DNA of 64,000 nucleotides from contig CM060734.1 in NCBI GenBank assembly GCA_030704615.1, positions 11,656,001 to 11,720,000 on the forward strand, read 5' to 3'. The DNA comes from Takakia lepidozioides (taxonomy: Eukaryota > Plantae > Bryophyta). The position numbers and the translations under genes were made by a program. This document shows positions 1 through 54,549 of the stretch, in pieces (positions within the stretch are counted from its first letter, which is position 1; each line of letters opens with the position of its first letter). A model generated the notes under the pieces. That model saw nothing but the letters and a program-made list of their open reading frames with translations, searched no databases and was not told where the DNA came from.

Positions 1-330
1 TATACCTCTGTTAGTATACCAAACAGAACCCTCATTTTCAGACTATACCTCTGTAAATGTATCATCAACATAAGGGACCCTAGCAACCTCAGACTATACC
101 TCTGTTAAGGTATCAACAGTGAAAGGACTTAGTGAAATTTAAGGGCCTTTGGAGGATTGTTTGGAAGATATTTGAGGGCCCTTGGAGGAGTATTTGGAGG
201 ATCTTTGGGGTCCTTGGAGGAGTGTTTGGAGGATCTTTGGGGTCCTTGGAGGACCCTTTGAGGAGCTTTGGTGGACAATGTTGAAGAGCTCTTGAAGGAT
301 TGATTGAGGGATATTGAAGGATACTTGCCA
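1..330. repeat. Short tandem repeats: TATACCTCTGT x3 and TTTGGAGGATCTTTGGGGTCCTTGGAGG-like units
   Basis: Directly visible at 1-110 and 150-270. Confidence 0.7.
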
Positions 331-1070
331 CGGCCATACAAGCGAGTGAATAAAGACAGGAGGGAGAGTGGTGGGATGAGAGCATTCTGGGGTTAGGAAT
401 TGCTTTAGTTTCTCTTCTCCATAGTCTTTCACCCTCCCTGTAGGCCGAAACCTTTCCGTAGGTGGAGGCAAGAGTCAGTCCGGGTTTGGGCTAGGTGTCC
501 TTGCAGGAGCGACACTGTGGAGTGTTTTTGGTGTGGGGGAGTTGCTGTCTTGATTTTCTTGTGTTTGGATCCCCTCCACACCTGCATGCTTGACTGTGCG
601 CCATGTTAGCTTTGTGTGGGCGCTTGTTTTCATAGGAGGTTGGTCCGGATTGATCACCGGCCAATCCTAGAGTATGTTGTCGGTGGTGAGGTTGGAGTGA
701 TGATCAGCAAGACCACCAGTGTTTCTTCTATGGTGAGGCTAGGTTGATGACCAGCAGACCATAGGAATGTTTGCGGTGGATGCAGGTGCAGGTACAGGTC
801 TACGTTAGAAACCTATTATTCCTGCTTGAACCAGTAGCCGCAACAGGTTCTCTACCCGGTTACCTTGTAGAAAGTGGGGATTAGAGACAGGTTGACAACC
901 GGTTGGGTTGTGAGTTTTCATCACGGAGGTGCCACCAGTTGCTGAGAGGAGTGCCGGTACGAGCACCAGCGATACTAGTGGGTACACAAGACAAGGTGTG
1001 CCACTTTCACCTTTAGTGTCTTCTGAGGAAGGTTCAGACTCGGAGTCATGAGGATTCTCAAGTCATTTCC

Positions 1071-3231
1071 GTGCCATTGTTGTGGGACACGATGGAGAAG
1101 ATGTATGGAGCTACCAAGGGGCCACGTAGGTACTTTGGAGCTGTGGGCACCATCGAGCTTGATGACTTTATACAAGAGTTTGACAATTGGTGTGATTTGC
1201 AGCAAATGCGCAATCCACAACTGTTTACGCCCTTTATGGCGTGGAAGGGGCTATTCCAGCACCTTGAGGGGCCGCCCATGGATGATTACCATGAATTTAG
1301 GCGGGGACATGCGGTGGAGATTGAGGAGTGGCGAGAGTATTGGTCACCTAACTATGTCTCAATCACTAGAGGCACAAGGGCAGCGGTGACACCAGCAGCT
1401 ACACAAACATCTCCAACTACAAGCACTAGTAGTGGAACATCACGACTACAACACATGTGCCTAGATTCAACCCGGTGGTGGAGTTCTTCTAGGAGTTGTG
1501 GAGGAACTACCAAGGTATACGGACAGAGAAGCTGCGAAGTTTGCAAGACTTTCAGCGCAAATCCAGTGAGAACTTGCGAGAGGCCTACACTCGTATGAGG
1601 CGCTTGATAGTGTGACCCAAGGGGTTACTGAAGCTCAGGCAGTCCAGTTCTGGTATGGAATTTTGGACAAGGAGCTCAGAAGAAGGGTGCGGGATGCAAC
1701 CCTGTTACAAGCGGCCCAACCCACATTAGCAGATGTATTTCTGCTGGCTGAGCAGATTGAACTCAACATGGTAGAGGAGCGAGTTGTTACCATTGGATTT
1801 GGCAAGGACATGCCTGCACGAGGCGCAGCTGCCAGCCAACAGGTACAAGGGACTGTCCAACAGCGTGGTCAGGGGGGCAAGGTTGCCCAACCCAAATTCC
1901 ATGGAGCTTACAGGGGACTTCAGGTGCAGAGACCAGTAGCTTCTTTTGCAGGCCAACAGCAACCAAGGGTGGTATGTTGGACATGTGGAGGACCCGATGT
2001 CAAGAAAGATTGCCCAGAAAGTGGCAAAGGGCCGGCACAAGCACAGCCTGCACAGTTGGAGTGTGGGCATTGTGGCAAGTATGGGCATGGAGATGCCCAG
2101 TGTTATGACTTGCACCCTGAGTTGCGGCGAGACCAGTTCCAAGCGAACAATGGTGGCCAAAGGCGAGGTGGAGCACCTCAGAGAGGACAAGGTGCTCAGG
2201 CACGAGGTGTAGGACAAGGGCAAGCACAATATGGCCAAGGACGTGGAGGTCAGGGTGTTGACCAAGGTATGGCCAACCGGCTTCAGCAGCTAGAGCAAAA
2301 GTTCGCTGCCATGGCCACATCTCAGGTGGTACCAGCTCCAAGACCTGAGGGTCCATCTCTTGTTCCTCCTCAGCAGCATCATCCTGACGGAGGAGACATG
2401 GGAGGCATGGGATTTATGTGTGGGGCAGCACTACCACTAGTGCAGGTGGAGTCTGCTGCAGCCGTCACTCGAGGAGCAGCACGAGTTCCTGAGCCACGAG
2501 GTGCAGAGGTGGAGTTGGATTCACAACGTGGGGAGGCAAGCCGTCAGGCTAGGTTGCCTCAATCATTCATCTTGGCGGAGACAGTGTCGACGACATCCAT
2601 GGCACCTAATTCTCGTCCCACGGATACCGAGGCGGAGGTTATTGTGCCATTGGGAAGAGCTACACGTGCAGCACTGACACCTGCTGCCAAGGCTAATGCA
2701 GCCAGTGTGTTGTTGGGGGCGGCCACCTCTGTGTGTCAGGCCCCACTGTTCTTGGCAACCATGATTGCGACGTCGGGGGTAAGACCAGCTGCAGTGTTCA
2801 GACTTGCAGCAACACTCTATGAGAGTGGGGAGGTCACTTCATCTTCTGCGGAGTTAGTGAAAGGTGTAGTGGCAGAGGGATCCTCGGATTTGAGGGTCAA
2901 GACTGCCATGGCTGCGCCATGGCAAGCTGCAGCTGCCAGGTTCACGGAGCTGCCAGGTAGGCCAGCCTTTGAGCGCGCCATGGTGACACCTAGAGTTGTC
3001 TTGTTAGACAACCAGAGAGGCATTTTCACTTTGAGTGGACCGGCAGGCAAGAAGTACCGGCCACTGCGGGTCTTGTTGGACTCAGGAGCTCAGCCACTGA
3101 TATTGGGCAGAGCTACTATTGCATGTTTGGGCCTCGTGGAGGCGGATATGGAGCCTTGTCCTTTCCAGATACAGACATCTCTTGGAGGATCAGAGCAGGC
3201 TCGGGGCATGACACGGGTGCAACAAGCCTAG
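1071..3231 (+). pseudogene. gag: gag plus aspartic protease of retrotransposon copy 1 (frameshifted)
   Basis: ORFs 1071..1598 and 1612..3231. CCHC-type knuckles at about 1975-2105, a Gly/Gln/Arg-rich tract, and the protease active site RVLLDSGAQPLI near 3070. Confidence 0.85.
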
Positions 3232-3339
3232 ATAAAGACCTTTGTACCGTCAGGAGAGGAGGAGAGTGCGGTGATTGCACCAGGACCATCTCAGTTGTCA
3301 CCATTGGACACCACACCTCTTGTGTGGCAGTGCCCGGAT

Positions 3340-4290
3340 GATGGCATATGCCTTCTGGACTTGTTTGGCGGGATTAATACTGGATTGGCTGCAGTGCTGC
3401 AGGCAGGTGTACGAGTTCGACATTACCTATATGTGGAGAGGGATGAGACTGCACGACGCGTCTCACTGCGCCATGTTGCTCAGTTGGTGCAGCAGTACCC
3501 TGATTTGTTGCCAGTGTCTGCAGTTTGTGGATACCAACAAGCCTTGCCAGCAGACATCTCCTTGCTGGGGGCGCATGATTTGGATCGGGTTGGCCCTATT
3601 CACTTTAGTAGTGGCAGGTTGGCCCTGCCAAGGGCTTTCATCAGCTGGGTATGACAATGAGTTACAAGACTCAAGGTCACGCCTGTTTTGGGAGATGTTG
3701 AGGGTCCTGCGCTATTTACAACTTCAGCAGACAGACTCTTCGGCATATATCTTGGAGAATGTGCCATTGATGGGTGATTCTCGGGCCAAGGTGATGGCCA
3801 GTGTACATCAAGTGTGGTCTTGGCTTGGGTCAGCAATGTTGTTGGATACAGCTGTAGTGGGGTCACGGACTCATCGCCCACGACTATGGTGGACCAACTT
3901 GATGCCACCTACATTGCTCAAGCGTGCATTTGATGGGGTGCAGCGGCCACCAAACCTGACGGTGGATAGCATTTTGGACATAGGGAGGCAGTCTCAGTGT
4001 GTGAGACACGATGACCAATCACCTTTGACAGTGGTCAATAAGGTGGGTCACCCACGAGCAGCATTGCCTACACTGCTCAGCTTTCCAAGATTCTCATGCT
4101 TTCCGGATGGTGGACCCTGGCCTCTTGTGGATACCCAGTTGCAGCAGTTAGTGGAGCCCAATGCTGACGAGCGCGAGCGGACAATGGGTTTCACCACTGG
4201 TACCACGGCGGTGCCATCTCTTTCTGAGGCATCACGTCGTCAGGTTGTTGGGCAAGCAATGGATCTCAATTGCTTGACCTGGATTATCAG
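3340..4290 (+). pseudogene. C5-cytosine DNA methyltransferase domain (DNMT3-like, non-permuted) inside retrotransposon pol; one frameshift near 3600
   Basis: ORF 3271..3654 carries motif I LLDLFGGINTG, II YLYVERD and III PADI. ORF 3275..4474 carries IV VAGWPCQGLSSAG (catalytic PC intact, 3620-3631), V SRLFWEMLRVL, VI YILENV, VIII HRPRLWWTN, IX ERERTMGF and X RRQVVGQAMD. Confidence 0.9.
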
Positions 4291-4739
4291 CTTGGCTATG
4301 GTTAAGCAGCGCAGAGTACGGAGTACACTTCCCTTGATGGTCTCCCTGCCTACCGAGACGGTACAGGCAGCGAGTGGGGGCGAACATGTGAGGACCACAA
4401 GGTGCAGGCCGTATCCATTGCACACGTGGGAGGTGCTCGAGTTCAAAAGGAGTTGGCAGCCAAGGCGGCCGTGATGAATGAGGTTGGGGATTTTCTCGGG
4501 TTGAGGAGGTCCTCAAAGATGGGATGATGGGGCAGGATGAGACATTGTCACTGACAGAGGAGGGAGTGGTCACTGCTCAAGAGGTTGCAGCATAGCAACC
4601 ACGGGACGCGTCTTCTACCTCTAAGCCTGTTAGACTCAAGGTTGCAGTCATGGAGGACAACTGGGAGCCTGATGTTGGACCTATAGTCACCAGAGGAGAA
4701 AGACGACGTATACGGCGGTTCTTGAGGCTTACAGGAACT

Positions 4740-5733
4740 GCTTTGCCTTCAGTTTGAAGGACTTAGGAGCACTGAAGGGTCAAGAGATTCGCATTGAATT
4801 GGCTACTGACACGCCAATCTTTCGGAGACCCTATAGATACAGTGACATGGAGAGGTCCTTGATTCAGATGAGAACTCAAGACCTTTGGGAGGCTGGTTTG
4901 GTGGAGCTATCTAGCGGGGTATGCTTCAGCCATAGTGATGCCAGCCAAGAAAGATGTCTATGGCAATTGGACGGAGAGACGTATGTGCGGTGATTACCGG
5001 CCTGTAAATCGTCAGACCAAGTCCGATAGGTATGCCATGCCGACACCAGATGAGATCTTGATGCCATGGGCATGCCAAGGTCTTCAGCACTTTGGATTTA
5101 TGATCCGGATATCACCAGTTGCCGATCAAGGAGGCGGATAAGCAGAAGACGGCATTCTGGGGGATCAATGAGCACGGGAATGATTGCCTATACCAGTGGC
5201 GGTTCTTACCATTTGAGCTTAAGAACGCTCCGGCAGAGTTTCTGAGAGTCATGGACAGGATTCTAGCAGGGGTGGAGTTTGCTTGGTGCTACATAGATGA
5301 CATCATCATCTTTAGTGCTACGATGGAGGAGCATGAGAGACACCTTCAGGTGATATTTGAGCACTTGAGGGCGCACGGATTGAAGTTACATCTGGGGAAG
5401 TGCAAGTTTTTCCACATCCAAATTGAGTATCTGGGTCACATGATATATCCTGGAGGATTGGGGGTACAGTAGACTAAGGTAGAGTCCATTGCACAGATTC
5501 CACGCCCCACGGATGTGAGCCGAGTTCGAGCTTTCATGGGGTTAACAAACTATTATAGATGGTTTGTTAAGGGATTTAGTGCCATTGCAAAGGCTCTAAC
5601 CAAACTGACCAAGATGGACCAGGAGTGACAGTGGGAAGATGAGCAAGAACAAGCTTTTCAAGAGCTCAAGGCGAGGTTGACCTCGGGCCCCATCTTGAGA
5701 CGACCTATCAGGGGGCGTCCTTTTCAGCTGCAT
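4740..5733 (+). pseudogene. pol: Reverse transcriptase and start of RNase H of copy 1 (frameshifts and stops)
   Basis: IFRRPYRYS, RRMCGDYRPVN, YQWRFLPF-LKNAP, CYIDDIIIFS, KCKFF..IEYLGH. Nearly collinear with 29900-30880. Confidence 0.9.
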
Positions 5734-6459
5734 TGTCGCGGCCCTTTGCCTTGAGGGCAGGGGGTCGGGACACATGAGGGGCTGCCCCTGTGGTGGGGGC
5801 AGCGGCAGCGATAGGTATGGGGGGCTGAAGCACCCTTGAGTGCCCAAGGCACTCAGGAAGCGGAGGCGCTCACTAGGTGGAGCCCCGCACACGGGTTGCG
5901 GTGGGGGTGGCTCCACAAGGGGTGGTGGTAGCTTAGCGGGACTTAGTGGGGGTGGCATATGACTCACCATGGGGGCAGAGACCTCGTGGTGGGAGTCGTG
6001 GGGAGTCTTGGGACTCATCACGGTCCATAGGGGCCGTGGTGAGCGGGCCAAGACTCACCGCGACTCATCACCGGGAGTCGAGGGTTTTCGTGGTGGTTCG
6101 CCATAAAAATGGCATGGCTGGTTGTGAAACCCCGCGGACAGCTACAGAAGTATATATATAGGGAGTAGTAACCCCGAGAACGGTGCAAGCCCGTTGATGA
6201 CCAAAAACTAGTGAGTAAGCGAGCGAGCCGGAAAGCGACCAAAGAGTGGGGAGCTGTTCCGGACTGCCATCTACCAAAAGGAATTCTCCTAGTCCCAAAG
6301 AGCTGGAGGGTTTAGTGGGAAGCGAAGGGGGACCGTTATGTCCCGGTGAGCAGCCGAAGCTCCAAGTTGGCCCGGGCGGCCAGGTTGGGAGTCAGGCGCG
6401 CGCATCAAAGCGAGTAACTATGACTTGAAGGGGAGCTTACCGAAGTGAGGTGCGCGACA
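5734..6459 (+). repeat. 5' LTR of the nested chromovirus
   Basis: TG...CA ends with the inverted termini TGTCGCG/CGCGACA, a TATATATA box at about 6151, an adjacent PBS, and high similarity to the solo LTR at 41231-41954. Confidence 0.95.
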
Positions 6460-6461
6460 CT

Positions 6462-6473
6462 TGGTATCAGAGC
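6462..6473 (+). promoter_or_regulatory. Primer binding site complementary to initiator tRNA-Met
   Basis: TGGTATCAGAGC, 2 nt after the LTR end. Confidence 0.9.
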
Positions 6474-6619
6474 TTAGAGAGTTCAGTACGCGATCGTCCT
6501 TGGGATTGGCCTCATAATAGGGTCGGGCAAGCCGAAGCGAAAGCGGAACGGCCCAAAAGATGATGATCCTGGTGAGCCCGATGGGGGCGACGTGTCACCA
6601 AGGCGGCCATTCGAGGAAG

Positions 6620-9600
6620 CGATGAATGTTTCCGAAAACGAGGCCGCTCAAGAGCGGGAGGAATCGAAGGAGTCGGAGCCCGAGGAATCCTTGAGAGCTC
6701 CGACAAACAAGAGATGCCTCCCATGTCGGCAGCCTTTTGGGAAGGGTTGTTGGCGCAGTTTGGCGGGACGTTGAAAGACGTGTTGAAGGCGGCTAATGCC
6801 ACTTCCACTAAGGCAAAGTTTAAGGTGAAGCCTAAGGAACCCGGCACCTTCGAGGGCGTTCAAAATCGGAAGGCACTCAACACCTGGCTCTTGGAGCTAG
6901 AGCAGTACTTCCGGGCGGCCAAGTTGAGTGAGTGACGAGGATCGGGTGGAAGTGGCTCCCACCTATTTGAGGGCTATGCTCAACAATGGTGGCAGAAACG
7001 CCTTCACGACCGAGGCCAAGCCCGGAAACCTTGAACTGGAGTGGGTTCAAGGAATTGATGAAGAGACAGTTTGTGCCCCTCAACGCGTCCTGGCTTGCCC
7101 GGGACAAGATGAGGAATTTGAAGCAAACAGATGACATTCGGGGGTATGTCCAGGCTTTCAATGTGTTGCTCGAAGTCGCGGACATGGCAGAACCAGAAAT
7201 GGTCTTCAACTTTGTGGCGGGACTGGCCCCATGGGCCAGGCGGAAGTTGGAGGAAAAGCCACCAAGACTTTGAAACGAGGCAATTGAGAGGGCTGAATGT
7301 TTCTCGGATGTCCCTAGGGGTGAGAGACAAGGCGTACGGAGCTGAACCACAAGAAGACCCGGCGGGAAGGTGACTCCTTCCGACCGGAAAAGAAGTGGGA
7401 TAGGCCACGCGGCGACAATGGCACGTGGAAATCGAAGGGAGGGCCTTCACACGTCAAGGCGGCACCCGGTGCTTCGAAAGGAAAAGCGGTGGAGTGGCTT
7501 ATGGCGGACAGAAGGGACCTTTGATGGAGTGTGTTTCAATTGCGGGGAGCCCGGGCACATGGCCAAGAAGTGCACAAAGCCCCGCAATTGAACATGACTC
7601 GGGCGACCACGGAGCTGTCGGAAGATAAGTCGTTTGGTGGAAGCGGTGGTCGCCAGGACTTGCAAGGTAGGCAAATTTTTTTTGTGAGTTGTATCAGGAA
7701 AACTGGCGCCTTACGAAAAGGGAGTCAGTTATTGTTCGTGGATGGGATAATATCCGGAACTAATGTGTCGTTGTTGGTGGACACAGGAGCGTCGCACTCC
7801 TTCATGACACCGGCAACGGCACAAAAGCTGGGACTCCCGACAAGTGACGTGGGGGCCTCTATTGAGGTGCGTTCTGCAAAGGAGAACCACAGTTGGCGAC
7901 AAGGTTGGCGTTTAATGTTCCTCTTCAACTGGGGAGTTGGGAGGGACGTGAGAACTTCACCATCTGCGAGATCGATGGAGTAGATCTCATTTTGGGGATG
8001 ACCTTTTTGAGCAAATCCGGAGCGGTCATAGATGGCCGCAAGAGAGTAGTCACGCTGCCATGTGGGAATGGTGGTGAGGTCTTACGAGTGTCGGAAACGC
8101 CCAAATCCGTGGGAGGGCGAATAAACCTTCTGTCAGCAAGGGAGTGGGCCGTGGAGGAGGCACACGACCCCAGTTTTTGCTTTACATTAGAGAAAGTGAA
8201 GAGAGAAGGCGATGGGGAGCCGAGCCCAGATTGGATCAAGGGGATTTTGGAGAATACCAGGATGTGATGCCGGAGGATTTACCAAGCGGCTTGCCACCGC
8301 GAAGAGGAGTTGACCACAAGATTGAGGTGATATCGGGATCGGAAACGCCTGCCAAGGCGCCCTACCGGTTGAGCCACAGAGAGTTGGTCGAGCTGAAGAC
8401 TCAGCTCAAGGATCTAATGTCAAAGGGGTACATCCGGCCGAGTAAGTCACTTACGGAGCCCCGGTGCTATTCGCAGACAAGAAGGATGGGACGCTGCGGA
8501 TGTGTGTCGATTACAGGGCTTTGAATAAGGTGACTATTAAAAACCGGTACCCTTTGCCAAGGATCGACGACCTTTTCGACCGGTTGGCAGGAGCGAAGTA
8601 TTTTAGCCGGATCGACTTGCGCTCCGGCTATCATCAAATTCGGGTGGCGGAAGGAGATGAGGAGAAGACCGCGTGCAGGGCAAGGTATGGTTCATATGAG
8701 TTCTTGGTGATGTCTTTTTGGCTCACCAATGCAGCGACATTTAGCACACTGATGAACAGCCTTTTTCAGGAGTGGTTGGATGACTTTGTGATCGTGTACA
8801 TCGACGACATCTTGGTGTACTCGAAAACAAAGGAGGAGCACCTCAAAAGGGTGTTTCAAAAATTGCGAGAAGGGAAGCTGTATGCCAAAGCTTCAAAGTG
8901 CGAATTCGGGGTCACGAAAGTGGAGTTCTTGGGGCATGTGATTACACAGGATGGGATCAAAATGGATGACAGAAAGGTGAGGGCGATCTTGGACTGGGAG
9001 CCTCCGACTTCGGTCCCGGGAGTGCGTTCCTTCCTAGGACTCGCCTCCTATTACCGGAAGTATGTGAGAAATTTCGCCAAGATCGCGGGGCCGCTGTCGG
9101 ACCTTCTGTGTAAATCTAAAGTCTGGGCATGGAACATATTTTGTGGCCAAGCTTTTGCTGAATTGAAGCAGCGGATGGCGGAAGCTCCAGTCTTGAAAAT
9201 CCCGGAGTTCGATCGTCCGTTCGAGATACATACACATGCGTCGGACTTCGCGATTGGGGGTGTACTGATGCAAGATGGACGTCCAGTGGCTTACGAAAGT
9301 AAGAAACTGAATGAAAGTGGAGCGACGGTGGCCGACGCACGAGAAAGAGATGAAGGCGGTGGTGCACTGTCTTGAGCTCTGACGCCACTATGTTGGTTCC
9401 AACCCAGTGAAGGTGTTCACGGACAATGTCACGGTGAAGTATTTTGCCACGCAGCCCAAGTTGTCCCCAAAACAACTTAGGTGGCAAGATACTTTGGCGG
9501 TGTTCGACGTGGATATCTAGTACAAACCGGGACGAGACAACGTGGTGGCCGATGCTTTAAGTAGAAAGCAGCAGCTCTTGTTGGTGTACAAGGGCGAGAC

Positions 9601-11040
9601 GGCGCTCCAAAGGAAGATCCGGAAGGCTTGCCGGAAGGATGAGCTGGCAAAGTCCGTGATGCAGGACTTGAGAATGGGGGTTAAATCGCAGTTCCACCTG
9701 CAAAATGGGTTGCTCCGGTATAAGCAAAATCGTCTCTACGTGCCGGGATCAGAGATAGCCTCTTGAGAGAATGCCATGATAGCCCGCTTGCGGGCCACGG
9801 CGTAGCAAGCGCACTGCGGCACTCTTGAAGAAAGAGTATTTCTGGCCCAAACTAAGGGAGGAGGCAGAGGAGTATGTCAAGACATGCACCACATGCCAAC
9901 AAAACCGGAGCGAGTACAAAAAGCAAGCGGGGCTGTTACAACCCTTGCCGATTCCAGATGGGACTTGGGAAAGCGTCTCGATGGATTTCATGACTGCTAT
10001 GCCGCTGTCAAAAGGATTCGATGCAATCATGGTGGTGGTGGATAGGTTCAGTAAAATGGGCCATTTCATTCCCACCAAGGAGACGGCAATGGCGCAGGAG
10101 ACAGGGCGACTTTACTTCGCCCACGTCTTAAAGCATCATGGAGTCCGAAGGATATTGTCTCGGACCGCGATCCAAAGTTTACGAGTAAATTCTGGAGAGC
10201 ACTTTGGAAGAAGATGGGGACGAGGCTGAAGATGAGCACCGCCTTCCGACCTACGACCGACGGCCAAACAGAAAGAGTGAATTCCGTAGTGAAGCAGATC
10301 TTGCGGAATTACGTGTCGGCAGACCAAACAGACTGGGTGGAACACTTAGACGCGGCAGAGTTCTATTATAATAACACAGAACACTCCGCAACGGGAGTTT
10401 CCCCTTTCGTATTGGTCTATGGAAAAGCACCTCTGGTGCCGACAAGTTGGGCCGCCCAGGACGTTGAGGAACCGGCAGTAGCGGCGGTACTGGAAGAACG
10501 CGAGCGTTTGTTGAAGCTCGCAAAGTACAACATTGCCAAAGCTAGGAAACGGTATGAAAGGCAGGCGAATTGGAAGCGGAGGGAAGTGAAATTTGAGGCA
10601 GGCACAGAGGTCTGTTGAACATCAAGAATTTCCGACTACCTCCGGAAGTAAGTCCGAAGTTCGTACCTCCGTATGCGGGACCCTTTCGCATTCGGAAGGT
10701 TATGAATGAGGATGTGTATGAATTGGAGCTGCCGGCAAACAGCAAGGTGCACCCAGTATTCCATGTCTCCCTATTGAAGCCTTACTTCAAAGATGAAGCA
10801 CGTCCAAATCGGCATCAGGTGTTGCGTCCGCCACCTATGCTGTTGGATCATGAAAATGAACCTGAGTACGAGGTGGAGGCAATATTTAAGTCGAGGAGGT
10901 TCAAGAACCGAGAAACGGAGTATCTCATCAAATGGAAGGGCTATCATCATGTGGAGGCATCTTGGGTGCGTGCCTCAGAAATGGGAAACGCATCCGAGGG
11001 GTTGCAGCTTTCGAAGGGCGACCTCAAAAGCGGAAGAAGC
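6620..11040 (+). pseudogene. gag-pol of the nested chromovirus, with a C-terminal type I chromodomain (about 10864-10990); many single-base indels
   Basis: ORF fragments 6714..6935, 6986..7273, 7370..7591, 7531..7983, 7893..8267, 8144..8524, 8464..9375, 9542..9766, 9825..10229, 10214..10618 and 10615..11100 tile one polyprotein. Chromodomain EYEVEAI...YLIKWKGY..EASW. Confidence 0.9.
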
Positions 11041-11252
11041 GTTGATGGGGACATCAACCTTGGATCGTGGGGGAGGAAATGCATGCTTAACCCGGCTTAG
11101 CTAGCTTAGGGATCCGATTACAAAAACTTGTATTGTACAAAAATTTGTTATAAAGGAAATGGGTTCCAAATGTTGTGCGTCCTATTTTGTTTGGAATGGT
11201 GATGCATGGTATGGTTGGCTAGTGTGTAGAATGCATGCTAGCTTATAAAAGT

Positions 11253-13195
11253 GGAGCATGCTGGGGCTTGGAGCGGTGCTCACACAGGTGGATGATGAGG
11301 GAAGAGAGTTCATAGTGGCTTATGCTAGCCGCTCGAACAACGCTGCAGAGTCTAAGTATAGCTCATATGAGGGAGAATGCTTAGCTGCAGTGTGGGCCGT
11401 GGCACACTTCAGGTGCTATCTATACGACAATATCTTCACCCTTGTCACGGATCACTAACCACTCAAGTGGTTGATGGAGTCAGACAAGCTTACGGGGAAG
11501 CTTGCACGATGGGCACTCATCCTTCAAGAGTATGACTTTCAGGTTGTGCATCGACCGGGTTTGGTCAATCGGGATGTAGATGGGTTGAGTCGCAATCCAT
11601 GCACGAGCCAACAGAATGATACTGGAGCTCGGTGGCATGGTGAGACGGACGAGGAGATAGTGCCCGGATGGCATGCATCTACATTTCTGTGTATCTTGGC
11701 AGCGGAAGGCCAGGTTGGACCTACAACAAGGATGACTGTAGACCGAGTGTCTAAGGACCCTGAGGCCAGCAATGAGCAAGGTGGCGCCAAAGATATACAT
11801 GAGGATTCAGCTGTGTTGGACTACCTCCGCACTGGAGACACGGCAGCCACTGTGACTGCCAAGGAGAGGGATCGGATCCTACAACGAGCCAAGAGGTTCA
11901 AGTGGGAGGGGACACACCTGCTCCGAGTGTGGGAGGATGGTCGAGTGAGGATTGTGCCTCACCCAACACAGCGGGCACGGTTAGTGTGGCATGCCCATGA
12001 GGAGTTGGGGCATTTTGGGGTGCGACGCACTCATAGTCTACTGCAGGGGCAGTATTGGTGGCGTGGTATGCACACAGAGGTGCAACAATTTGTGGCTAGG
12101 TGCATGGTGTGTGACAGGGTGCGTGCTTCATTCAACGCCTCTACTCCACAATTGCACCCTCTTCTGATCATGGGATTGGGCTACAGGTGGAGTCTTGACT
12201 TCGTAGGGCTGTTGTCACTGACCATGCGCCACAACAAGTACGTATTGGTGATGGTGGAGCACTTCTCCAAGTGGATCGAGTTGGTTCCATTGCCTGATAA
12301 GGCTAGTGAGGGAGCTGCGTATGCATTCTTGGATTGTGTACTTAGCCGATTCGGTGCTCCAGCTGAGGTACTCACGGACCAAGAGAGAGAGTCCTTGGGG
12401 GAGTTTCAGGCGTTGTGTGACAAGGCCTTGGTAGACCACCGCACCACTTCTCGGGATCATCCTGAGGCCGATGGCCTGGCAGAGAGGGTTGTTCAGACAG
12501 TGAAGAGGGGTTTGCGCAAGTATGGCTTGCAGAAGGGACACTTAGGAGATTGGGAACTTCAGTTACCTTGGTTAGCCATGGGCTATAGGTTCAGCAAGCA
12601 TCACTTGCCTCCTTCTCACCATACTTTCTTCTCTTTGGCCGAGAGCCGGATTTGCCTGCATCCATTCGTAGAGAAGCTGCTACAGTTCTCAACCTTGACA
12701 ATCCGGATATGTGGGCACGTGCATGTGATCAGCGTGCAGAGTTGTTCAAGAAAGTCATGCCCATGGCTTTCGAGAACCTTACCATTGCACAACATCATGA
12801 TACGTTGAGGTATGCTATCATACGTGGTGGGGGCTATCGTCCTGGGGTTCGGAGATTTAACCCTGGTGACTATGTTTATCTGCAGCAGACTGCTCCTACG
12901 ACCTTGGATGTGACTGCAGGACGTACTATTTTGAGGGTTCGAGAGGTGTTGCCCTCAGGAGTCCTGATCTTGGAGGGTCGGGATGGCATGATTTGGAAGG
13001 ACCATGTGCATAAATGCGCGCCATGTCACCTTCCAAATGTTGATGGAAGGGTTGACCCAAACCTGACAGTGGTACCCGCAAGCCACCATGCTGGTGTGTG
13101 ATCAATGCTCTAGAGGTTGGCATATGGGATGCTTGACTCCACCTCTTGAGATGGTTCCTGATGGGGATTGGTTATGTCCGCATTGCATTGGATAG
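11253..13195 (+). pseudogene. pol: RNase H, integrase and partly deleted PHD finger of copy 1
   Basis: ORFs 11258..11458, 11471..12808 and 12652..13101. The tail reads MLVCDQCSRGWHMGCLTPPLEMVPDGDWLCPHC*; the first CxxC is lost by deletion relative to copy 2. Confidence 0.9.
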
Positions 13196-13452
13196 TGGGA
13201 GTGGATACAACCATGGAAGGCTAACAAGAAATGCAAGGCCAAGCTACTAGGAGACCAACACACGAGATCCTGACTCAAGTTCACAGATTGCAAGACGGCG
13301 ACTAACGATGGGGTTGCTCTTGTACCCGGCCTCTTGGTCTATAGAGTTTGAGTACAATAGGGACAATGATAGAGGACTTAGTACGGCTGTGGCTATTATA
13401 TCTTGTAGCTATCTGGAGTTAGAGGGACCTAACCACCAGCTAGGGGGGCGAT

Positions 13453-13537
13453 TGTGGTATAGCTTTCTAGGATTATGTGCTTAGATTGTGTGGTGGACAG
13501 CGATGTATGTTGTGGCACGATGCTTAGGTGCACGACA
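13453..13537 (+). repeat. Very short (85 bp) 3' terminal repeat/LTR of copy 1
   Basis: Directly follows the PPT. Runs TGTGGT...CACGACA, with the same termini as the A repeats at 33008, 33389, 48750 and 49255. Confidence 0.65.
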
Positions 13538-20484: not shown

Positions 20485-23400
20485 ATGGACGTAGGAGCGG
20501 AAGCCGACGACATTCAGCAATTTGAGAGCCGGCTTATATGCCCTCTTCGACAAAGTCTGCAAACACCGAAACCAGGACCTTTCAACAATAAGGACATCCA
20601 TTGGAAGTGTGAAACGCAATATGGGTTTAGCGGGGTGCAAGTGCGTGTTAAAAAGGCATGTATACCTTGGGATAGAGTTGCGGACTTCGTCCATGGAGAG
20701 GAGAGTGTGGAGGACTGCCCCACTCAATATTGGGTACATGTGCACAGTAAAGTGGACGTCGGAGTGCGGAAAGCTCCCAGAGGGAACACCTTCTTGAGCA
20801 GTATTATGTGTGCACCATCCTCATTGTGGTTTAGGGATGTCACTACATTGTTGTTGTGATTTGTATTTGTCTCCGACTGTGGCTTCCATAAGTCCATAGG
20901 TTGATATTTTGGCTTTTGAATTCCATTTGATAGGTATCAATGCTACTACGGACCCGACGACAAGCGCACGGTCAATGCAAGTGTCGAGGATCCAAAACAA
21001 AAGCGTGGAGGTCCGGATGTGGGTGCTGGCACTAAACACCCGCATAAAGGCCCAAGAAGGAAGAAGTCGGACTACGGAGAGTCGTACAAGCGCGGGTGCC
21101 TTTGTTGTTTCAAAGTGCAGCAATCTTATCTTGCCCCGGACATTTGTGTCCTCACATACTACAACAACATGGAGCACGTCGATGCCCTAGGGAAACCCTC
21201 CCATGGCAAGACCGCAGAGTTCAGGAACACACGGGCAGCCTACGCACCCCGCATTAGCCAGGAATTGAAAGCCTAGGTCGTTGAGTGTTTGTGCCGAGGC
21301 CTCATGGTCGCACAAATCATGATGGAACACAAGGAGCATGTCATGAACAACACAGGTTTGGGAGATGCATGGACACGTGATGATTTCCTCCTCGAGCAAG
21401 ATGTCCGCAACCTGGCTGAGAAACGGGCGTGGCAGACGTTCAAAAAGCATGCCAACGATGCCGACGGCGTCCGCATGTGGAAAGACCTGAACCCCGCATC
21501 AGTCTTCCTCTATCGAGAAGAAACATTGGCGCCAACCTTCAAGCATTACGATGGAGATTTGACATTCACTATTGGCATTCAAACTGAGTGGTAGAAGTAG
21601 AAAATGCTTCAATTGGGACATGCGCGTATCGTTGCATGCGATGCAACCTTCAAGACAAACCACCACAAGGTACGATCCCTCTTACTATTTCTGCAAATCA
21701 ATTGTTCGTAGGATGTTGCACATTGGAACCAACTAACATAGTGACATAGTGCATCTGAACAGTTCCCATTGTACACGTTGATGGTTTTCGACGAGTGGCT
21801 AAACGGTATACCAGTTGCGTACATCATATCCGCCAGGAATAGGACAACAGACCTGGTGCCGTGGATGACTACCTTGCGTGACCGACTCCACGCAGATATG
21901 CTGACCTGGCGACCCAATGCCTTCATTGTCGATGATGCGGACGCTGAAATCAATGCTATAAGGTGAGTCTTCCATACCTCAACAGACACCCACTGTCGAA
22001 GTCCTCTGGCATGCAACTGTCGTCATAGTGTGCTTTGGCAGAGTCTGTGGCATAGTCGCGTGCAACAGTTCCCTGAGAGACTCGCATGCGCGAGTCTGCT
22101 GGCAGACTAGACTCGGACCAAGTCGCGTGGGCAAGCCCGACTCGCCCGACCAAGTCGCTGGCAGACTTGCCCGGCCGAGTCCGCTGGCAGACTCGCAGGG
22201 GGGACTCTGCTGGCACCCTTCATGGGTCTGCTGGCAGACTTGGGAGGGGAAGTCGGCCCGCCAGACCCGTAGGCATGTCTTGCGACCAAGTTCGTGTAGG
22301 GGTTGGTGTGGAGTCTGCTTTGGGCTACTCGCTGGCAGACACGCCTGCCAGTACCCTGGCAGACTCGCATGCGCGATTCCGTTGGCAGACTCGACTCGGA
22401 GACTCCGCTACACACTTGTGGGTGAGTCCGCTTGCAGTCAACGGACCAACTCCGCTGGTAGACTTGCGTGGGCGAGTCCGCTGATACACTGAACGGGCCG
22501 AGTCCGCTGGCAGACTCGTCAGGCGGCGTCCGCCACAAGACTCGCAGGGCCGAGTCCGCTGCCACGCTTCATGGGTCTGCTAGCAGACTTGGGAGGGGAA
22601 GTCAGCCCGCCACATCCGCAGGCAATGTCTTATCACCAAGTCCGTTTAGGGGTTGGTGTGAAGTCTGTTGGAGGTCTCCAGCACTCGGATGGTGTCCACC
22701 AACCGGAGTTCCCTCTGAAGTGCCTCATGTGGATGTGTTATGTGCAGGGTTGCTTTCAAAGGAGTCTCATTTTCCTGTGCCTTTGGCATGTCCGCAAGGC
22801 ATGGGTAAAGCAATCATGCCAGAAGACCAAAGATCCCGTCACAGCAACAAACGTGTTGAAGGATATGGGAGACCTCATGTACTATAGAGGTGGACCAAGC
22901 GATCCCAAAAAAACGCTTCTATGGGTTGCCAAAACAATCAGGGACATGAGAAAGAAATATCGGAATGCCCAGGAATTTTTAAAGTACATCGACAAGGAAT
23001 GGTCTCCTAAAATAGCAATGTGGTGTACTGCTGCTCGTCATGTTCCACATGCCAGTCAAGACACAAATGCTAGCATTGAGGCATACCATGGAAACTTGAA
23101 GGCTAGACTGAGGATGGGGGAAAGCAAAATGACTGGTCGAAGAGTCGATTGGCTAATATGGGAACTCACGGGCCGTGTGCTCACACACTACTGGTACGCA
23201 ATTCATTTGAAGACGCATGGGTTCATACGCAATGACAAACAGGAAAAGTACATATCTAGCTCTGTGCTAGCGGCCAGGGACATTCCAGCAAGCAATGTGA
23301 CTCTACCCTTGGTGGAAGGACAACCAGCGTATGTACTAAGCAGCAATCACCCAGACACAACCTACATTGTTTACAACCCTGGATCGGATTGGGCTTCTTG

Positions 23401-23968
23401 CACTTGCCCATGGGCAATAAAAGACAATTTGTGCAAAAACCAAGTGAAAGTGTTGAAGTTGCTTCATCCCGACTTGCAGGATGGACTCATAGTGCGTGCA
23501 TGTGGCACGGCGCTCGGAACCATACATGGAGGATTGCATAATTTGATGTTGGATACAACGACTGTCGCGATGGACAGACTTGTGGAGGATTGTGACTTTG
23601 CACCCCTCAAGGAACCCGTCTACGTCCCACTGAGTATGACCGAAGAATGGTCAGATATACTTCGTATTGTGGGTAATGACAAGTACCTCGAGACACATGT
23701 GCTGTCGTGCCTTCGAATCTGTAGAGGACAACTTATTGATATCATGGCCAAAAGTGCTACTGGGATGCTACATCCTCGTGCAGCAAAACCTTTCCGACCT
23801 GTTGACGACACTAATAATTTGTCTCTGAAAAGGAAGAGGGATTTTGTCGAAGCATGGAAAACCCGACCCAGAGTCTTGCGGAGAACGCGCAATAGGGTGT
23901 ATGCACCTGCAACGAAAATATACTCTAGAATTGTTAAGGTTTCAGACCGTTGGGCGGGACCCAAGTAG
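20485..23968 (+). pseudogene. MULE-type DDE transposase with SWIM finger (resembles the plant AT1G60560/AT4G13970 family); exons at about 20485-20806, 20933-21669, 21763-21962, 22749-23968; premature TAG stops near 21274 and 21592
   Basis: IPWDRVADFVHGEE, KRGCLCCF, ACDATFKTN (D), FIVDDADAE (D), CLWH, TNASIEAYH (E), GRRVDWLI, SWIM CTCPWAIKDNLCKN. Introns are GT-AG. Confidence 0.85.
22035..22680. repeat. Intronic array of palindromic GAGTCYGC-TG-GCAGACTY units, including an internal duplication of about 350 bp
   Basis: The unit recurs many times (e.g. 22092, 22177, 22500). 22219-22320 is similar to 22568-22669. Confidence 0.8.
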
Positions 23969-29860: not shown

Positions 29861-32800
29861 GACGTATACGGCGGTTCCTGAGGGCTTACATGAATTGCCT
29901 TCAGTTTGAAGGACTTGGGAGCACTGAAGGGTCAAGAGATTCGTATTGAGTTGGCCACTGACAAGCCAATCTTTCGGAGACCCTATAGATATAGTGACAT
30001 GGAGAGGTCTTTGATTCAGATGAGGACTCAAGATCTCCGGGAGGCTGGTTTGGTGGAGCTCTCTGTTGGAGAGTATGCTTCAGCCACAGTGATGCCAGCC
30101 AAGAACGATGTCTATGGCAATTGGACGGAGAGACGTATGTGCGGTGATTACCGGCCTGTAAATCGTCAGACCAAGTCCGATAAGTATGCCATGCCCACAC
30201 CGGAGGAGATCTTTGATGCCATTGGGCATGCTAAGGTCTTTAGCACTTTGGATTTACGATCCGGATATCACCAGTTGCCGATCAAGGAGGCGGATAAGCA
30301 GAAGACGACATTCTAATGGATCAATGAGCACGGCAAGGATTGCCTATATCAGTGGCGATTCTTACCATTCGGGCTTAGGTTCGCTCCTGCAGAGTTCTAG
30401 AGAGTCATGGACAGGATTCTAGCAGGGGTAGAGTTTGTTCGGTGCTACATAGATGACATCATCATCTTCAGTGCTACTGTGCATAAGAGACATCTTCAGG
30501 TGGTATTGGAGCGCTTGAGAGCGCACGGATTGAAGCTGCATCCGGGGAAGTACAAGTTTTTTCACAACCAGATTGAGTATCTGGGTCACATGATATATCC
30601 TGGAGGATTGGGGGTATAGTAGACTAAGGTAGAGGCCATTGCACAAATTCCACGCCCCACGGATGTGAGCTGAGTTCGAGCTTTCATGGGGTTGGCAAAC
30701 TATTATAGACAGTTTGTCAAGGGATTTAGTATCATTGCAAAGGCTCTAACCAAGCTGACCAAGGTGGACCAGGAGTGGCATTGGGAAGATGAGCAAAAAC
30801 GAGCTTTTCAAAAGCTCAAGGCGAGGTTGACCTCGGCGCCTATCTTGAGACGACCTATCAGGGGGCGCCCTTTTCAGTACGGATTGGAGCATGCTGGGGC
30901 TTGGAGCGGTGCTCACACAGGTGGATGATGAGGGAAGAGAGTTTGTAGTGGCTTATGTTAGCCGCTCGAACAATGCTGCAGAGGCTAAGTATAGCTCATA
31001 TGAGGGAGAGTGCTTAGCTTGAGTGTGGGCTGTGCCACACTTCAGGTGCTATCTATACGGCAATCTCTTCACCCTTGTCATTGATCACCAGCCACTCAAG
31101 TAGATGATGGAGTCAGACAAGCTTACGGGGAAGCTTGCACGGTAGGCACTCATATTCCAGGAGTATGACTTTCAGGTTGTGCATCGACCGGGATTGGTCA
31201 ATCGGGATGCGGATGGATTTTTGTGTATCTTGGCAGCGGGAGGCCAGATTGGACCTATGACAGGGATGACTGTAGACGGAGTGTCTGAGGACCTGAGGCT
31301 AGTGACGAGCCAGGTGGCGCCAGAGATATACATGAGGATTCGGCTGTGTTAGACTACTTCCGTACTGGAGACACGGCAGCCACTATGACTGCCAAAGAAA
31401 AGGATTGGATTCTGCAACGAGCCAAGAGGTTCAAGTGGGAGAAGATAGGAGGATGGTCGGGTGAGGATTGTGCCTCACCCAACACAGCGTACACAGTTAG
31501 TGCGACATGCCCATGAGGAGTTGGGGCATTTTGGAGTGCGACGCACTCACAGTCTACTGCAGGGGCAGTATTGGTGGCGTGGTATGCACACAGAGGTGCA
31601 ACAGTTTGTGGCTAGATGCATGGTGTATGACAGGGTGTGTGCTTCATTCAACGCCCCTACACCCCAGTTGCATCCTCTTCCGATCATGGGATTGGGCTAC
31701 AGGTGGAGTCTTGACTTCGCAGGACCGTTGCCACTGACGATGCGTCACCACAGATATGTGTTGGTGATGGTGGAGCACTTCTCCAAGTGGATTGAGTTGG
31801 TTCCGTAGCCTGACAAGGCTAGTGAGGGGTCTGCGTATGCATTCTTGGATTGTGTGCTTAGCTGATTTGGTGCTCCAGCTGAGGTACTCACGGACCAGGG
31901 GAGAGAGTTCTTGGGGGAGTTTCAGGCTTTGTGTGATAAAGCCTTGATAGACCACCGCACCATTTCTCGGGATCATGCTGTGGCCGATGGTTTGACAGAG
32001 AGAGTTGTGCAAACGGTGAAGAAGGGTTTGCGCAAGTATAGCTTGCAGAAGGGACACCTAGGAGATTGGGATCTTCAGGTACCTGGTTAGCCATGGGCTA
32101 CAGGTTCAGCAAACAAGCATCACTTGCCTCCTTCTCACCATATTTCCTTCTCTTTGGCCGAGAGCCGGATTTGCCAGCAGCCATTCATAGGGACACTGCT
32201 CAAGTCCTTAACCTTGACAATCCGGACGTGTGGGTACGTGCATGTGATCAACGTGCAGAGTTGTTCAAGAAAGTCATGCCCATGGCTTTTGAGAACCTTG
32301 CCATTGCACAGCACCGTAATACGTTGAGGTATGCCGCTATACGTGGTGGAGGATATCGTCTTGGGATTCGGAGGTTTAGCCCTGGTGACTATGTTTATTT
32401 GCAACAGACTGCTCCTACGACCCTGGATGTTACTGCAGGGCGTGTTATTCTGAGGGTTCGAGAGGTGTTGCCCTCAGGGGTCCTGATCTTGAAGGGTCGG
32501 GATGGCATGACTTGGAAGGACCATGTGCGTAATTGTGCGCCATGTCACCTTCCCAATGTCGATGGCAGAGTTGACCCAAACTTGGTAATGATACTTGTAG
32601 GTTTGAGGTGCATGTTCTGTGGGTCTGCCAAAGGGGCAGCCACCATGCTGGTGTATGATCAATGCTCAAGAGGTTGGCACATGGGATGCTTGACACCACC
32701 TCTTGAGAGGGTTCCTGATGGAGATTGGTTATGTCCACACTGCTTGGGATAGTGGCAGTGGATATGACTAGTGGCAGCTAACAAGACATGGGAGGCCAAG

Positions 32801-33554
32801 CTCATAGGAGTCAATACATCTCAGGCTCAAGTTCACAGGTTGCAAGACGGCGACTAACGATGGGGCAACTCTTGCACCGGCCCTCTTGATCTATCGAGTT
32901 TGAGTGTAGTAGAGACAGTGGTGGAGGACTTAGTGAGGCTACGGTTACTATTGCATCTTGTGGCTACCTGGACTTAGAGGGACCTAGGCACCAACTAGGG
33001 GGGCGATTGTGGTGGACTGGTGACTGCCATAGTGGGCAGCATAGTGGCGTAGCGATATGTATGCGCACGACAACTGTCAAGTTATTTCACCACTAGTGTG
33101 AAACTAGTTAGAAAATAGCTAGCTTTTACATATTGACATTTGGGATTGGCCCAAGTGTCAATCCAGGGGTCAAGGCAGATTTAGGCCCTGGAGTGGTTAT
33201 CTTCATGGCAAGCGCGGGAGGCTCATCTTTCTCGAGTTGAGCCTCACCGCATCTAGTTATGGTGCCATAATGCGGATTCCCCATAGCGTGGGGTGCACCT
33301 GGCTCGACTTAATATATGAGTGATGTTTTCATGTGCAAGCGTGTGTGTTTTAGAGAGCTTGTGTGCTTGTATTCTTCTTCTTTATCATTGTGGTGGACTA
33401 GTGACTACCATAGTGGGCAGCATAGTGGCAGCCTAGTGACTGACTAGTGACAGCCTAGTGGTTGGACTAGTGGTATACTAGTGTGTGGTGTGCACATGTG
33501 TTGTGTGGTTTTGGACAGCGATGTAGTTGTGTAGTGATATGTATGCGCACGACA
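29861..33554 (+). mobile_element. Ty3/Gypsy copy 2 of the DNMT/PHD family, 5'-truncated (RT-RH-INT-PHD-3'UTR-PPT-terminal repeats)
   Basis: Collinear with copy 1 from about 4705 onward and has no nested insertion. Full-length PHD CMFC...(Y)DQC.RGWHMGC...WLCPHC at 32609-32752. PPT at 32997-33007. Confidence 0.92.
33008..33554 (+). repeat. Composite 3' terminal structure A1(33008-33072)-B(33073-33388)-A2(33389-33554)
   Basis: A = TGTGGTGGAC...GCGCACGACA. The same A-B-A arrangement occurs at 48750-49398. Confidence 0.8.
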
Positions 33555-36109: not shown

Positions 36110-37748
36110 ATGGAGTACTACCCGGCGCCGGGAAGGAACCATTTGTTCGTGCCTGGCCCTACCAATGTACCCGAGCCGATCCTGAGGGCTATGAACAGGA
36201 GTAACGAAGACCATCGCTCTCCTGCTTTCCCGAAGCTTTCCAAATCCGTTATTGAGGATGTGAAGCAAATCTTCAAGACCAAGGATGCGCTTTCCTTCAT
36301 CTTTCCTACAACAGGTCCTTCTCGGGCCCCCTCGATTTAGTTTGAAGTAGAATCATACCTGTATAGTTCCCGTTACTGACATGACCTCGTCATGTTGATC
36401 ACAGGAACTGGAGCATGGGAGAGTGCATTGACCAATACATTGTCACCGGGGGACAAAATTATCTCTTTCGAATTAGGACAGTTTAGTCTCCTCTGGATAG
36501 ACCAGATGCAGCGCCTCAAATTCGACGTGGATGTGATAGAGTGTGAGTGGGGAACCGGTATCAACCTGGCTGTTTTGAAGCAGAAGCTATCCTCGGATTA
36601 CTCGCATGCTATCAAGGCAGTCTGTTGCGTGCACAATGAGACATCCACAGGGGTCACAAACGATATTGGCGCAGTCCGGAAGGTACTCGGTGAGCTTCAA
36701 ACAGTGCCGTGCTTATGTCTGTGCGCTGTAATTTGATTGTGAGCTGCAACACACTTATGTGGCGGGGTATTGTGCAGATGAGACCACACATCCAGCCTTG
36801 TTGCTGGTGGATGGTGTGTCATCAATTGGTGCCATTGATTTTCGCATGGATGATTGGAGAGTGGACGTTGCTTTGACTGGATCACAGAAGGCACTCTCTC
36901 TGCCTACAGGCCTGGGAATTGTATGTGCGGGGCCCAAGGCTTTGGAAGCTGCAAAAACTGCCAAATCCTGCAGAGTGTTTTTTGACTGGGCAGATTACAT
37001 GAAGTATTACAAAGCTGGCTCCTATTGGCCATACACTCCTTCAAGCCAGATGCTTTATGGTCTGCGCGCTTCCCTGGACCTCATTTTTGAGGAAGGTCTC
37101 GACAATGTCATTGCCAGGCACCATCGGCTTGCACAATCTACAAGGTATTTGGCCTTAGATTCGCATTTACAATAGTGGTAGTTTCAGCCAACGCCATGGC
37201 AGCTGCCTGATTCTCGTATTTGTATCTGTTCTCAATTCTCTGACGTCGTCACTGAAAATGCAGGGAAGCCGTGAAGGCTTGGGGTCTCAAGCTGTGTACG
37301 CAAAAGGCAGAGTGGCACAGCGATACTGTCACTGCTGTGCTTGTGCCATCTTACATTGACAGCTCAGAGATCGTGAAGCTTGCGTGGAAGAAGTTCAACC
37401 TCAGCCTTGGAGTTGGCCTGAACAAAGTTGCGGGGAAAGTGTTTCGGATTGGGCATCTTGGAAATCTGAACGAGGTGATAACCTTATTTCTCTTTTGGCT
37501 AAGCATAGAGGGTTGTAGGCGCAATCTCACCTCTAATAGTCTTTGTTGATTCTTTATCTAATTACTGTGCTAAAACATCAGAGTGTGACATATGGCTGGT
37601 TGGTTTGCAGCTCCAATTGCTTGGTGCTCTTGCAGGTGTGGAGCTGGTATTACAGGAGGTTGGTTATCCTGTTTCTTTAGGCAGTGGCGTGGCAGCAGCA
37701 GCTGCCTATCTCCAGAAAGCCACCCTGCTCATTGCTTCACGAATTTGA
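36110..37748 (+). CDS. AGT1: Serine:glyoxylate (alanine:glyoxylate) aminotransferase, peroxisomal; exons 36110-36314, 36405-36689, 36778-37144, 37264-37474, 37611-37748
   Basis: PGRNHLFVPGP, TTGTGAWESALTNTLSPGD, VHNETSTG, LVDGVSS, the PLP-lysine motif TGSQKALSLPTG, FRIGHLG, and C-terminal PTS1 -SRI*. Introns are GT-AG and in phase. Confidence 0.97.
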
Positions 37749-41230: not shown

Positions 41231-41954
41231 TGTCGCGGCCCTTTGCCTTGAGGGCAGGGGGGGTCGGGACACAAGAGGGGCTGCCCCTGTGGTGGGGGCA
41301 GTAGCAGCGATAGGTACGGGGGCTGAAGCACCCTTGAGTGCCCAAGGCACTCAAGGAGGCGGAGGCGCTCACTAGGTGGAGCCCCGCACACCGGGTTGCG
41401 GTGGGGGTGGCTCCACAAGGGGTGGTGGTAGCTTAGCGGGACTTAGTGGGGGTGGCATAGGACTCACCATGGGGTGGAGACCTCGAGGTGGGAGTCGTGG
41501 GGAGTCTTGGGACTCATCACGGTCCATTGGGGCCGCGGTGAGTGGGCCAAGACTCACCGCGACTCACCACCGGGAATCGAGGGTCTTCGTGGTGGTTCGC
41601 CATAAAATGGCATGGCTGGTTGTGAAACCCCCGCGGACAGCTACAGAAGTATATATAGGGAGTAGTAACCCCGAGAACGGTGCAAGCCCGTTGGTGACCA
41701 AAAACTAGTGAGTAAGCGAGCGAGCCGGAAAGCGACAAAGAGTGGGGAGCTGTTCCGGACTGCCAACTACCAAAGGGAATTCCCGCTGGTTCCAAATCGC
41801 TGGAGGTTCTTTGGGAGAACAAGGGGGGACCGTTATGCCCGGTGAGCAGTCGAAGCTCCAAGTTGGCCCGGCGGCCAGGTTGGGAGTCAGGCGCGCGCAT
41901 CAAAGTGAGTAACTATGACTTGAAGGGGAGCTTACCGAAGTGAGGTGCGCGACA
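41231..41954 (+). mobile_element. Solo LTR of the chromovirus family, with 5-bp TSD ATAAA
   Basis: TGTCGCGG...GCGCGACA, collinear with 5734-6459. ATAAA on both sides (41226-41230 and 41955-41959). Confidence 0.96.
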
Positions 41955-54500: not shown

Positions 54501-54549
54501 TCGCTTCACCTCCAGAATGGAGTGCATATCCGAGCCTTGCCCAATTCTC

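Follow-up and report, generated by a model that had tools for sequence, protein, structure and literature searches.

A DNMT3-like cytosine methyltransferase in a bryophyte-wide family of Ty3/gypsy retrotransposons, ahead of a conserved stop codon

A 64,000-nucleotide stretch of the genome of the moss Takakia lepidozioides (GenBank assembly GCA_030704615.1, contig CM060734.1, positions 11,656,001 to 11,720,000 of the forward strand; henceforth the window, with positions counted from its first letter) contains, at 3340–4290, a confirmed non-permuted C5 cytosine methyltransferase (DNMT) located between the protease and the reverse transcriptase (RT) of a Ty3/gypsy element. The element is a decayed copy of a Ty3/gypsy family that is abundant and bryophyte-wide. 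Its first ORF comprises Gag, protease and DNMT and is closed by a conserved stop; the chances are about even that this stop is read through, with the enzyme being made and packaged at the level of the capsid and methylating the element's own cDNA prior to integration. The components of this element (copy 1), and of two further family members in the window, are as follows.

1092–2300, + strand: gag with its start codon at 1092 and degenerate CCHC knuckles at about 1975–2110, frameshifted
3073–3216, + strand: N-terminal half of the aspartic protease (LLDSGAQP), the remainder deleted near 3216
3340–4290, + strand: DNMT3-like C5 cytosine methyltransferase domain with motifs I–X in linear order and a single frameshift near 3600
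4593–4601, + strand: conserved stop TAG-CAA-CCA ending the Gag-protease-DNMT ORF, a predicted readthrough site
4680–5733, + strand: RT and start of RNase H (RH), frameshifted
5734–11251, + strand: nested chromovirus-type gypsy element outside the DNMT family, with a 726-bp 5' LTR, TGGTATCAGAGC primer site and chromodomain (PF00385, E 1.1e-10)
11252–13200, + strand: continuation of the DNMT element, with RNase H, integrase (IN) and a PHD finger that is deleted in part
13437–13537, + strand: purine tract plus one terminal repeat, B (TTGTGG...GCACGACA), end of copy 1
29861–33554, + strand: second family copy, 5'-truncated, RT-RH-IN-PHD and full 3' end, 85–92% identical to copy 1
48672–49398, + strand: third remnant, consisting of the 3' end alone, with a purine tract followed by B-2 nt-A-B

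A preliminary description had placed the methyltransferase motifs in linear order on the + strand between protease and RT, with an intact catalytic cysteine, and all of them were found there. In translation, motif I reads LDLFGGI (F at 3364), motif II YVERDE, motif IV AGWPCQ with the catalytic Cys codon at 3626–3628, motif VI ENV (E at 3755), motif VIII HRPRLWWTN (R at 3875 and 3881), motif IX ERERTMGF (about 4169) and motif X GQAMD (4250–4264). The profile search with PF00145 that the description had proposed scored above the cut-off on 3608–4339 (E 3.7e-9; score 36.9 bits, cut-off 22), and the N-terminal piece, 3340–3606, taken on its own, had no Pfam match. Across 309 mapped codons there are no stops and a single frameshift, at about 3600–3607 between motifs III and IV.

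Assignment of the domain to the DNMT3 type, as first proposed, likewise stood, both by motif order and by the best match of a relative. In DRM enzymes, motifs VI–X precede I–V, whereas the moss domain is not permuted. Metagenome locus L005, which has a stop-free domain 64% identical to that of the window and was used for the fold and structure searches, found DNMT3A as its best phmmer match among solved structures (1.4e-11, versus 8e-4 for DRM and 5e-4 for HhaI), and its model (pLDDT 89.8) returned DNMT3A as the best Foldseek match (E 1.5e-20, 23% identity). The host plant enzymes PpDNMT3a/b share a DNMT3-type catalytic domain, but they are encoded by stand-alone genes and are described with a C-terminal DUF3444 (Yaari et al. 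2019, PMC6453930), both features being absent from the window element; Pfam detected DUF3444 in none of 32 scanned short homologues. In a tree without any host DNMT3, the closest relatives of the window DNMT are retroelement polyproteins. The claim of an element-borne, intronless, non-permuted DNMT3-like methyltransferase in a land plant is supported.

The long Marchantia ORFs, as well as distant relatives, retain the catalytic Cys, the Glu and both Arg. Among decayed loci, the Cys is retained in 65/71 and the motif VI Glu in 74/78, while the motif VIII arginines are often mutated (retained in 34/79 and 47/79), a loss that is likely due to CpG decay. It has been considered that the DNMT persists because it serves the particle in a non-catalytic or RNA-directed way, such as by nucleic-acid binding or RNA methylation, given an identity to DNMT3A/B of just 20–23% (structure match of the L005 model) and the lack of DNA activity in yeast of a Klebsormidium nitens counterpart, discussed below. 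Such a role is improbable in light of the retained catalytic residues and of a fold that best matches DNA-bound DNMT3 structures, with DNMT2 matching far less by sequence.

The initial view that copy 1 is broken only by small frameshifts has to be amended, as it also lacks about 150 codons and contains the chromovirus insertion, which interrupts it at the start of RNase H. The codons are absent between protease and DNMT by comparison with Marchantia Mp4g09160, of which residues 684–860 span only window 3216–3283, and because of this loss copy 1 is dead. The protease motif LLDSGA lies at 3073–3090, in a piece that scores below the Pfam cut-off (PF13650, E 0.078), and a contig of sequencing run X7 continues past 3216 with different letters, unlike the window. 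The gag of copy 1 has no Pfam match, and by tblastn is 80% identical to Marchantia protein P0121 over residues 1–94 and 47% over 181–684. RVT_1 is recognized by Pfam on 5107–5469 (E 8.7e-23), with the RT motif YIDD at 5290–5301. The 5' terminal repeat of copy 1 (repeat A) would lie to the left of the window.

The window also contains other mobile and host sequences. The nested chromovirus lacks a 3' LTR, and a solo LTR of its family, 94% identical and apparently with a 5-bp target duplication, occurs at 41231–41954. Fragments of SWIM/MULE-like and other DNA transposons, with translations judged by eye, are located at 22493–23968, 52289–54497 and 54487–55044. Three copies or fragments of a PLS-type PPR gene occupy 44984–45458, 49399–49918 and 58730–60065; the second is inverted relative to the gene at 58.7–60 kb and directly abuts the third remnant of the DNMT family. 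A host gene for serine-glyoxylate aminotransferase, in five exons at 36110–37745, has its best named match in Physcomitrium (84% identical) and groups with mosses while falling outside the Sphagnum pair as well as the Physcomitrium/Ceratodon group (quick tree of this one gene, support 88), which most probably places the host among mosses.

Protein searches yielded 141 and 35 homologues; those with a name come from Marchantia, Sphagnum, Calypogeia and Riccia at 50–72% identity, together with one homologous fragment from the alga Spirogloea; Gag-protease-DNMT proteins are present in Marchantia, Sphagnum and Calypogeia. Among the matches listed (120 of 141, and 35 of 35), there is no named homologue from a fern, lycophyte, hornwort, seed plant or Physcomitrium, a weak negative given that the searches were word-based. 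A named Klebsormidium protein appears neither among the listed matches nor among 20 retroelement proteins looked up, and 20 pattern matches in viral contigs included no confirmed case. At a threshold of 1e-30, 228 of 1.84 billion representatives match; among 142 newly listed representatives, 85 carry retroelement domains as judged by probes, and 57 comprise the DNMT only. Several ORFs of the family reside on the male V chromosome of Marchantia (MpVg00370, MpVg00540; cluster of P0121).

A metagenome scan with the DNMT as query confirmed 144 stretches, from which 80 loci representing 64 distinct copies were kept; because the loci were found in this way, family members devoid of a DNMT cannot be counted. 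Across the 80 loci, the protease precedes the DNMT in 45 (60 have room for it), RT follows it in 65 (73 with room), RT or RNase H stands just upstream of it in none, and the span from Gag to integrase is complete in 16, in the Ty3/gypsy order RT-RH-IN. In four loci (L058, L068, L070, L073), a second N-terminal piece of the DNMT and a protease follow right after RT on the opposite strand, an inverted rearrangement common to their subfamily. All 30 bins of positions 1–6000 are covered by contigs from two runs of a sample labelled organism A, which may be the source of the window itself, and by contigs from a run belonging to another study; in the two organism A runs the DNMT bins are covered like those of gag and RT; run X7, which is RNA only by guess, covers about 400–3600 and nothing in 3601–5600.

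The family-wide presence of the segment bears directly on the suspicion that copy 1 had made a one-off capture, or received an inserted pseudogene, of a host DNMT3 or DRM gene. The heavy rearrangement of copy 1 around the DNMT is compatible with such an event; nevertheless, the segment holds the same position in liverworts and peat moss, its nearest relatives are retroelement polyproteins, DUF3444 is absent from the short homologues scanned, and it evolves under purifying selection, as detailed below. The single-copy test set out in the preliminary description does not refute its reading, since the DNMT recurs in Marchantia, Sphagnum, Calypogeia and the 80 metagenome loci, and one-off capture, having been refuted by family-wide position and purifying selection, retains only a negligible probability.

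A quick DNMT tree was built from 66 rows, for which 25 of the 68 rows of the type RT-RH-DNMT were randomly drawn; it is weakly rooted and includes no host DNMT3. The main group of loci falls together with a named Sphagnum protein in this tree. The sole outsider of an RT tree, the nested chromovirus, was not placed outside, and neither tree gives the direction of transfer. Two layouts are found among the relatives, namely a DNMT ahead of RT, as in the moss and liverwort family and some single-ORF elements, versus RT-RH-DNMT-IN-PHD, as in P0146, P0148 and about 20 others. Proteins of the latter layout often end in a DPWxGxG...TSPW tail without a Pfam match, which we take to resemble an adenine/N4-cytosine methyltransferase, so that these gypsy elements would carry a PHD finger along with two methylases; by probes, this tail is absent from the 80 loci and from the window. 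In P0241, a related DNMT is fused to the copia-type Gag domain PF14223, which suggests that the DNMT module also moved into copia elements.

The DNMT domain is under purifying selection. Comparison of the window DNMT with the 80 loci gave a median pN of 0.244 and pS of 0.737 (omega of about 0.09; dS at or close to saturation, with 23 comparisons saturated); the expectation that the domain does not evolve neutrally across copies was therefore upheld, and RT and integrase behave like the DNMT in this comparison. Close pairs of loci show an omega of 0.5–0.85, as expected because decay after insertion is mixed in. At dS of 0.2–0.5, the DNMT is less constrained (0.53–0.58) than RT (0.31–0.38).

The original placement of the DNMT inside pol, in one ORF joining protease, DNMT and RT, did not survive closer inspection: the DNMT is the last domain of the Gag-protease ORF, which ends at a conserved stop (46/56 loci), usually in frame with the RT-RH-IN-PHD that follows. 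Of 56 loci with DNMT and RT near each other, 35 have RT in the frame of the DNMT, and the stop sits at one anchored place in 46 (TAG in 34, TAA in 12), being followed by CAA in 45, while CAG or CAA replaces the stop in none. The remaining 10 loci comprise one with GAG, one off by a base, one deletion and seven mis-anchored members of other subfamilies; six of these seven have a stop-CAA nearby, in four cases TAA-CAA-TCA. By comparison, no stop due to decay elsewhere is present in more than 30% of copies. In Marchantia, five gene products of 1278–1281 aa consist of Gag, protease and DNMT and end before RT, as judged from the protein ends only, and four further products of 885–1435 aa run from Gag or protease through the DNMT and also end before RT. 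A single ORF with DNMT and RT does occur in the distant relatives P0192 and P0328.

Following UAG, the hexamer CAR-YYA constitutes the readthrough signal of TMV, which is described as working in planta with all three stops (PMC2754532). It is matched exactly by TAG-CAA-CCA in the window and by TAA-CAA-TCA/TTA in one subfamily, and the commonest context in peat-moss-type copies, CAA-CCC, is one base off. Judging from this sequence context, the stop is probably read through into RT-RNase H-integrase-PHD. A conserved RNA structure after the stop was not found, with z below -2 in 2/24 folds. Peat-moss-type copies have an in-frame ATG two codons past the stop, and RT could for this reason be made by re-initiation or splicing instead; some predicted Marchantia gene models (P0126, P0129) indeed join DNMT to RT. 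Production of RT-RH-IN by re-initiation or from an RNA in which the stop is spliced out, with the role of the DNMT unchanged, is nonetheless a little less probable even than a non-catalytic role of the enzyme, because the window copy has no ATG there yet retains TAG-CAA-CCA, and both frame continuity (35/56) and the CAA after the stop are retained in three subfamilies. If readthrough does take place, protease and DNMT would be made at the level of Gag, and RT and integrase at a fraction of it; the conserved stop hence predicts that the enzyme is an abundant component of the particle and not a rare passenger of Pol.

Relatives carry a repeat A at the 5' end and, at the 3' end, a purine tract followed by B-2 nt-A-B. 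The whole A-coding-B-A-B arrangement is complete in L051/L057 and in L054, with repeat A of L057 starting about 1490 nt before gag, and the 3' B-A-B is present in L006, L013, L047 and twice in the window. In the second window copy, which is truncated at the start of RT, the 3' end resolves into B (33007–33072), 2 nt, A (33075–33387) and B (33388–33554). All five distinct copies with both ends are flanked by a 4-bp target duplication (L003 TACA, L031 TGTG, L051=L057 CATA, L054 TCTC, L071 TGTT), and three of the five, like copy 1, have just one B at their 3' end. We infer from these ends a circular or junction-containing intermediate that would be cut by integrase at the B-nn-A joint. A PHD finger is found at the end of the integrase in the family; that of the second copy (PF00628, E 2.6e-9) is closest to the fingers of CHD4, KDM5A/B PHD1 and PHF21A. 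CHD4, KDM5 PHD1 and PHF21A are readers of unmodified H3K4. By this similarity, the finger may bind unmodified H3K4 and thereby favour insertion into chromatin lacking H3K4me3.

The initial statement that DNMT-carrying retrotransposons had been reported in Symbiodinium and Klebsormidium was borne out by de Mendoza et al. 2018 (PMC5890265). According to that account, KnitGypsy-Dnmt3 of Klebsormidium nitens is a DNMT3-bearing gypsy element that shares with the moss family the gypsy domains, an intronless non-permuted DNMT3-like domain under purifying selection, and the DIRS-type repeats A-coding-B-A-B seen in the relatives. It differs, by description and not by sequence, in that its DNMT is said by the authors to share an ORF with RT and RNase H, whereas the moss DNMT ends the Gag-protease ORF at the stop; its host is an alga, whereas the hosts of the moss and liverwort family are land plants. 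Its enzyme produced no DNA methylation in yeast, a result called inconclusive by its authors, while SymbioDIRS-Dnmt3 methylated CG there (PMC5890265). SymbioDIRS-Dnmt3 and SymbioLINE-Dnmt of Symbiodinium are likewise retroelement-borne C5 methyltransferases, and the former has the same split repeats as the moss family, but these elements use a tyrosine recombinase or LINE machinery, in contrast to the DDE integrase and 4-bp target duplication of the moss family (PMC5890265).

EpiLTRs (bioRxiv 10.64898/2026.05.21.726589) resemble the family as LTR elements with a DNMT and a histone reader; as described, they combine DAM, a DNMT4-related DNMT and a chromodomain in Euglena and Cymbomonas, whereas the moss family has a PHD finger and no chromodomain, and the accessible preprint text makes no mention of Marchantia, bryophytes, land plants or mosses. 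Phygy is, similarly, a non-chromovirus gypsy clade of moss (Neumann et al. 2019, PMC6317226), but prefers NCGN target sites, which none of the five target duplications of the moss family match, and no methyltransferase is mentioned for it in the accessible text. Literature searches found no report of a DNMT-carrying retroelement in a land plant, although the word 'streptophytes' in the available text of PMC12344493 and of the EpiLTR preprint could cover such cases, and searches on readthrough and split repeats in DNMT-carrying elements yielded, by title or abstract, no description of the moss and liverwort family. The design as such is already in print for algae; within these searches, the land-plant range and the stop-defined layout are new.

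For the mechanism, it is proposed that ribosomes would translate Gag-protease-DNMT at capsid level, a fraction of them reading through the stop into RT-RH-IN-PHD, and that the DNMT would be packaged in bulk in the particle, presumably be freed by the protease, and methylate the new cDNA of the element before integration. The new copy could benefit by arriving marked like its surroundings or by limiting its own expression. Going by the conserved sequence features, catalytic activity with cDNA as the substrate is a reading about as likely to be right as wrong. The active enzyme may instead work on nuclear chromatin, at the integration site or on resident family copies, with self-silencing or an effect in trans. 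In its favour, output of the first ORF would exceed the enzyme needed for one cDNA, host-benefit and insertion-site roles are listed by de Mendoza et al. 2018 (PMC5890265), and the element is CpG-poor (observed/expected 0.43–0.56) compared with the nested chromovirus (0.87). This CpG contrast is weak, as the value for a host gene in the window is just as low (0.56) and the chromovirus is the younger of the two elements, and CpG depletion was rejected on these grounds as a sign of self-methylation. The DNMT domain itself also contains no chromatin-targeting part, and a nuclear role thus appears unlikely, if somewhat less so than a non-catalytic one. The fullest version of the preferred reading, with methylation of cDNA in the particle, remains tentative and is rather less likely than its core: a gypsy lineage that is old in streptophytes and has many copies in mosses and liverworts, in which a leaky stop would load particles at capsid level with an active de novo methyltransferase, the cDNA would be pre-methylated, replication would use DIRS-like split repeats, and a DDE integrase would be guided by a PHD finger for unmodified H3K4.

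The role of retrotransposon-borne DNMTs has been a standing question from 2018 on, as their known hosts are difficult to handle experimentally. In Marchantia polymorpha, five or more gene products of about 1280 aa possess the complete set of motifs (e.g., Mp4g09160, Mp5g06330, Mp5g06860), and these are annotated only as hypothetical proteins; with the family present in mosses and liverworts, and with stop-free ORFs in this species, the question becomes testable in a genetic model that has methylation mutants. Genes of the family could make the number of DNMTs counted in bryophyte genomes too high, and their products, if active, could contribute to bryophyte methylomes. If the proposed mechanism is true, land plants would harbour a transposon that deposits a silencing mark on itself.
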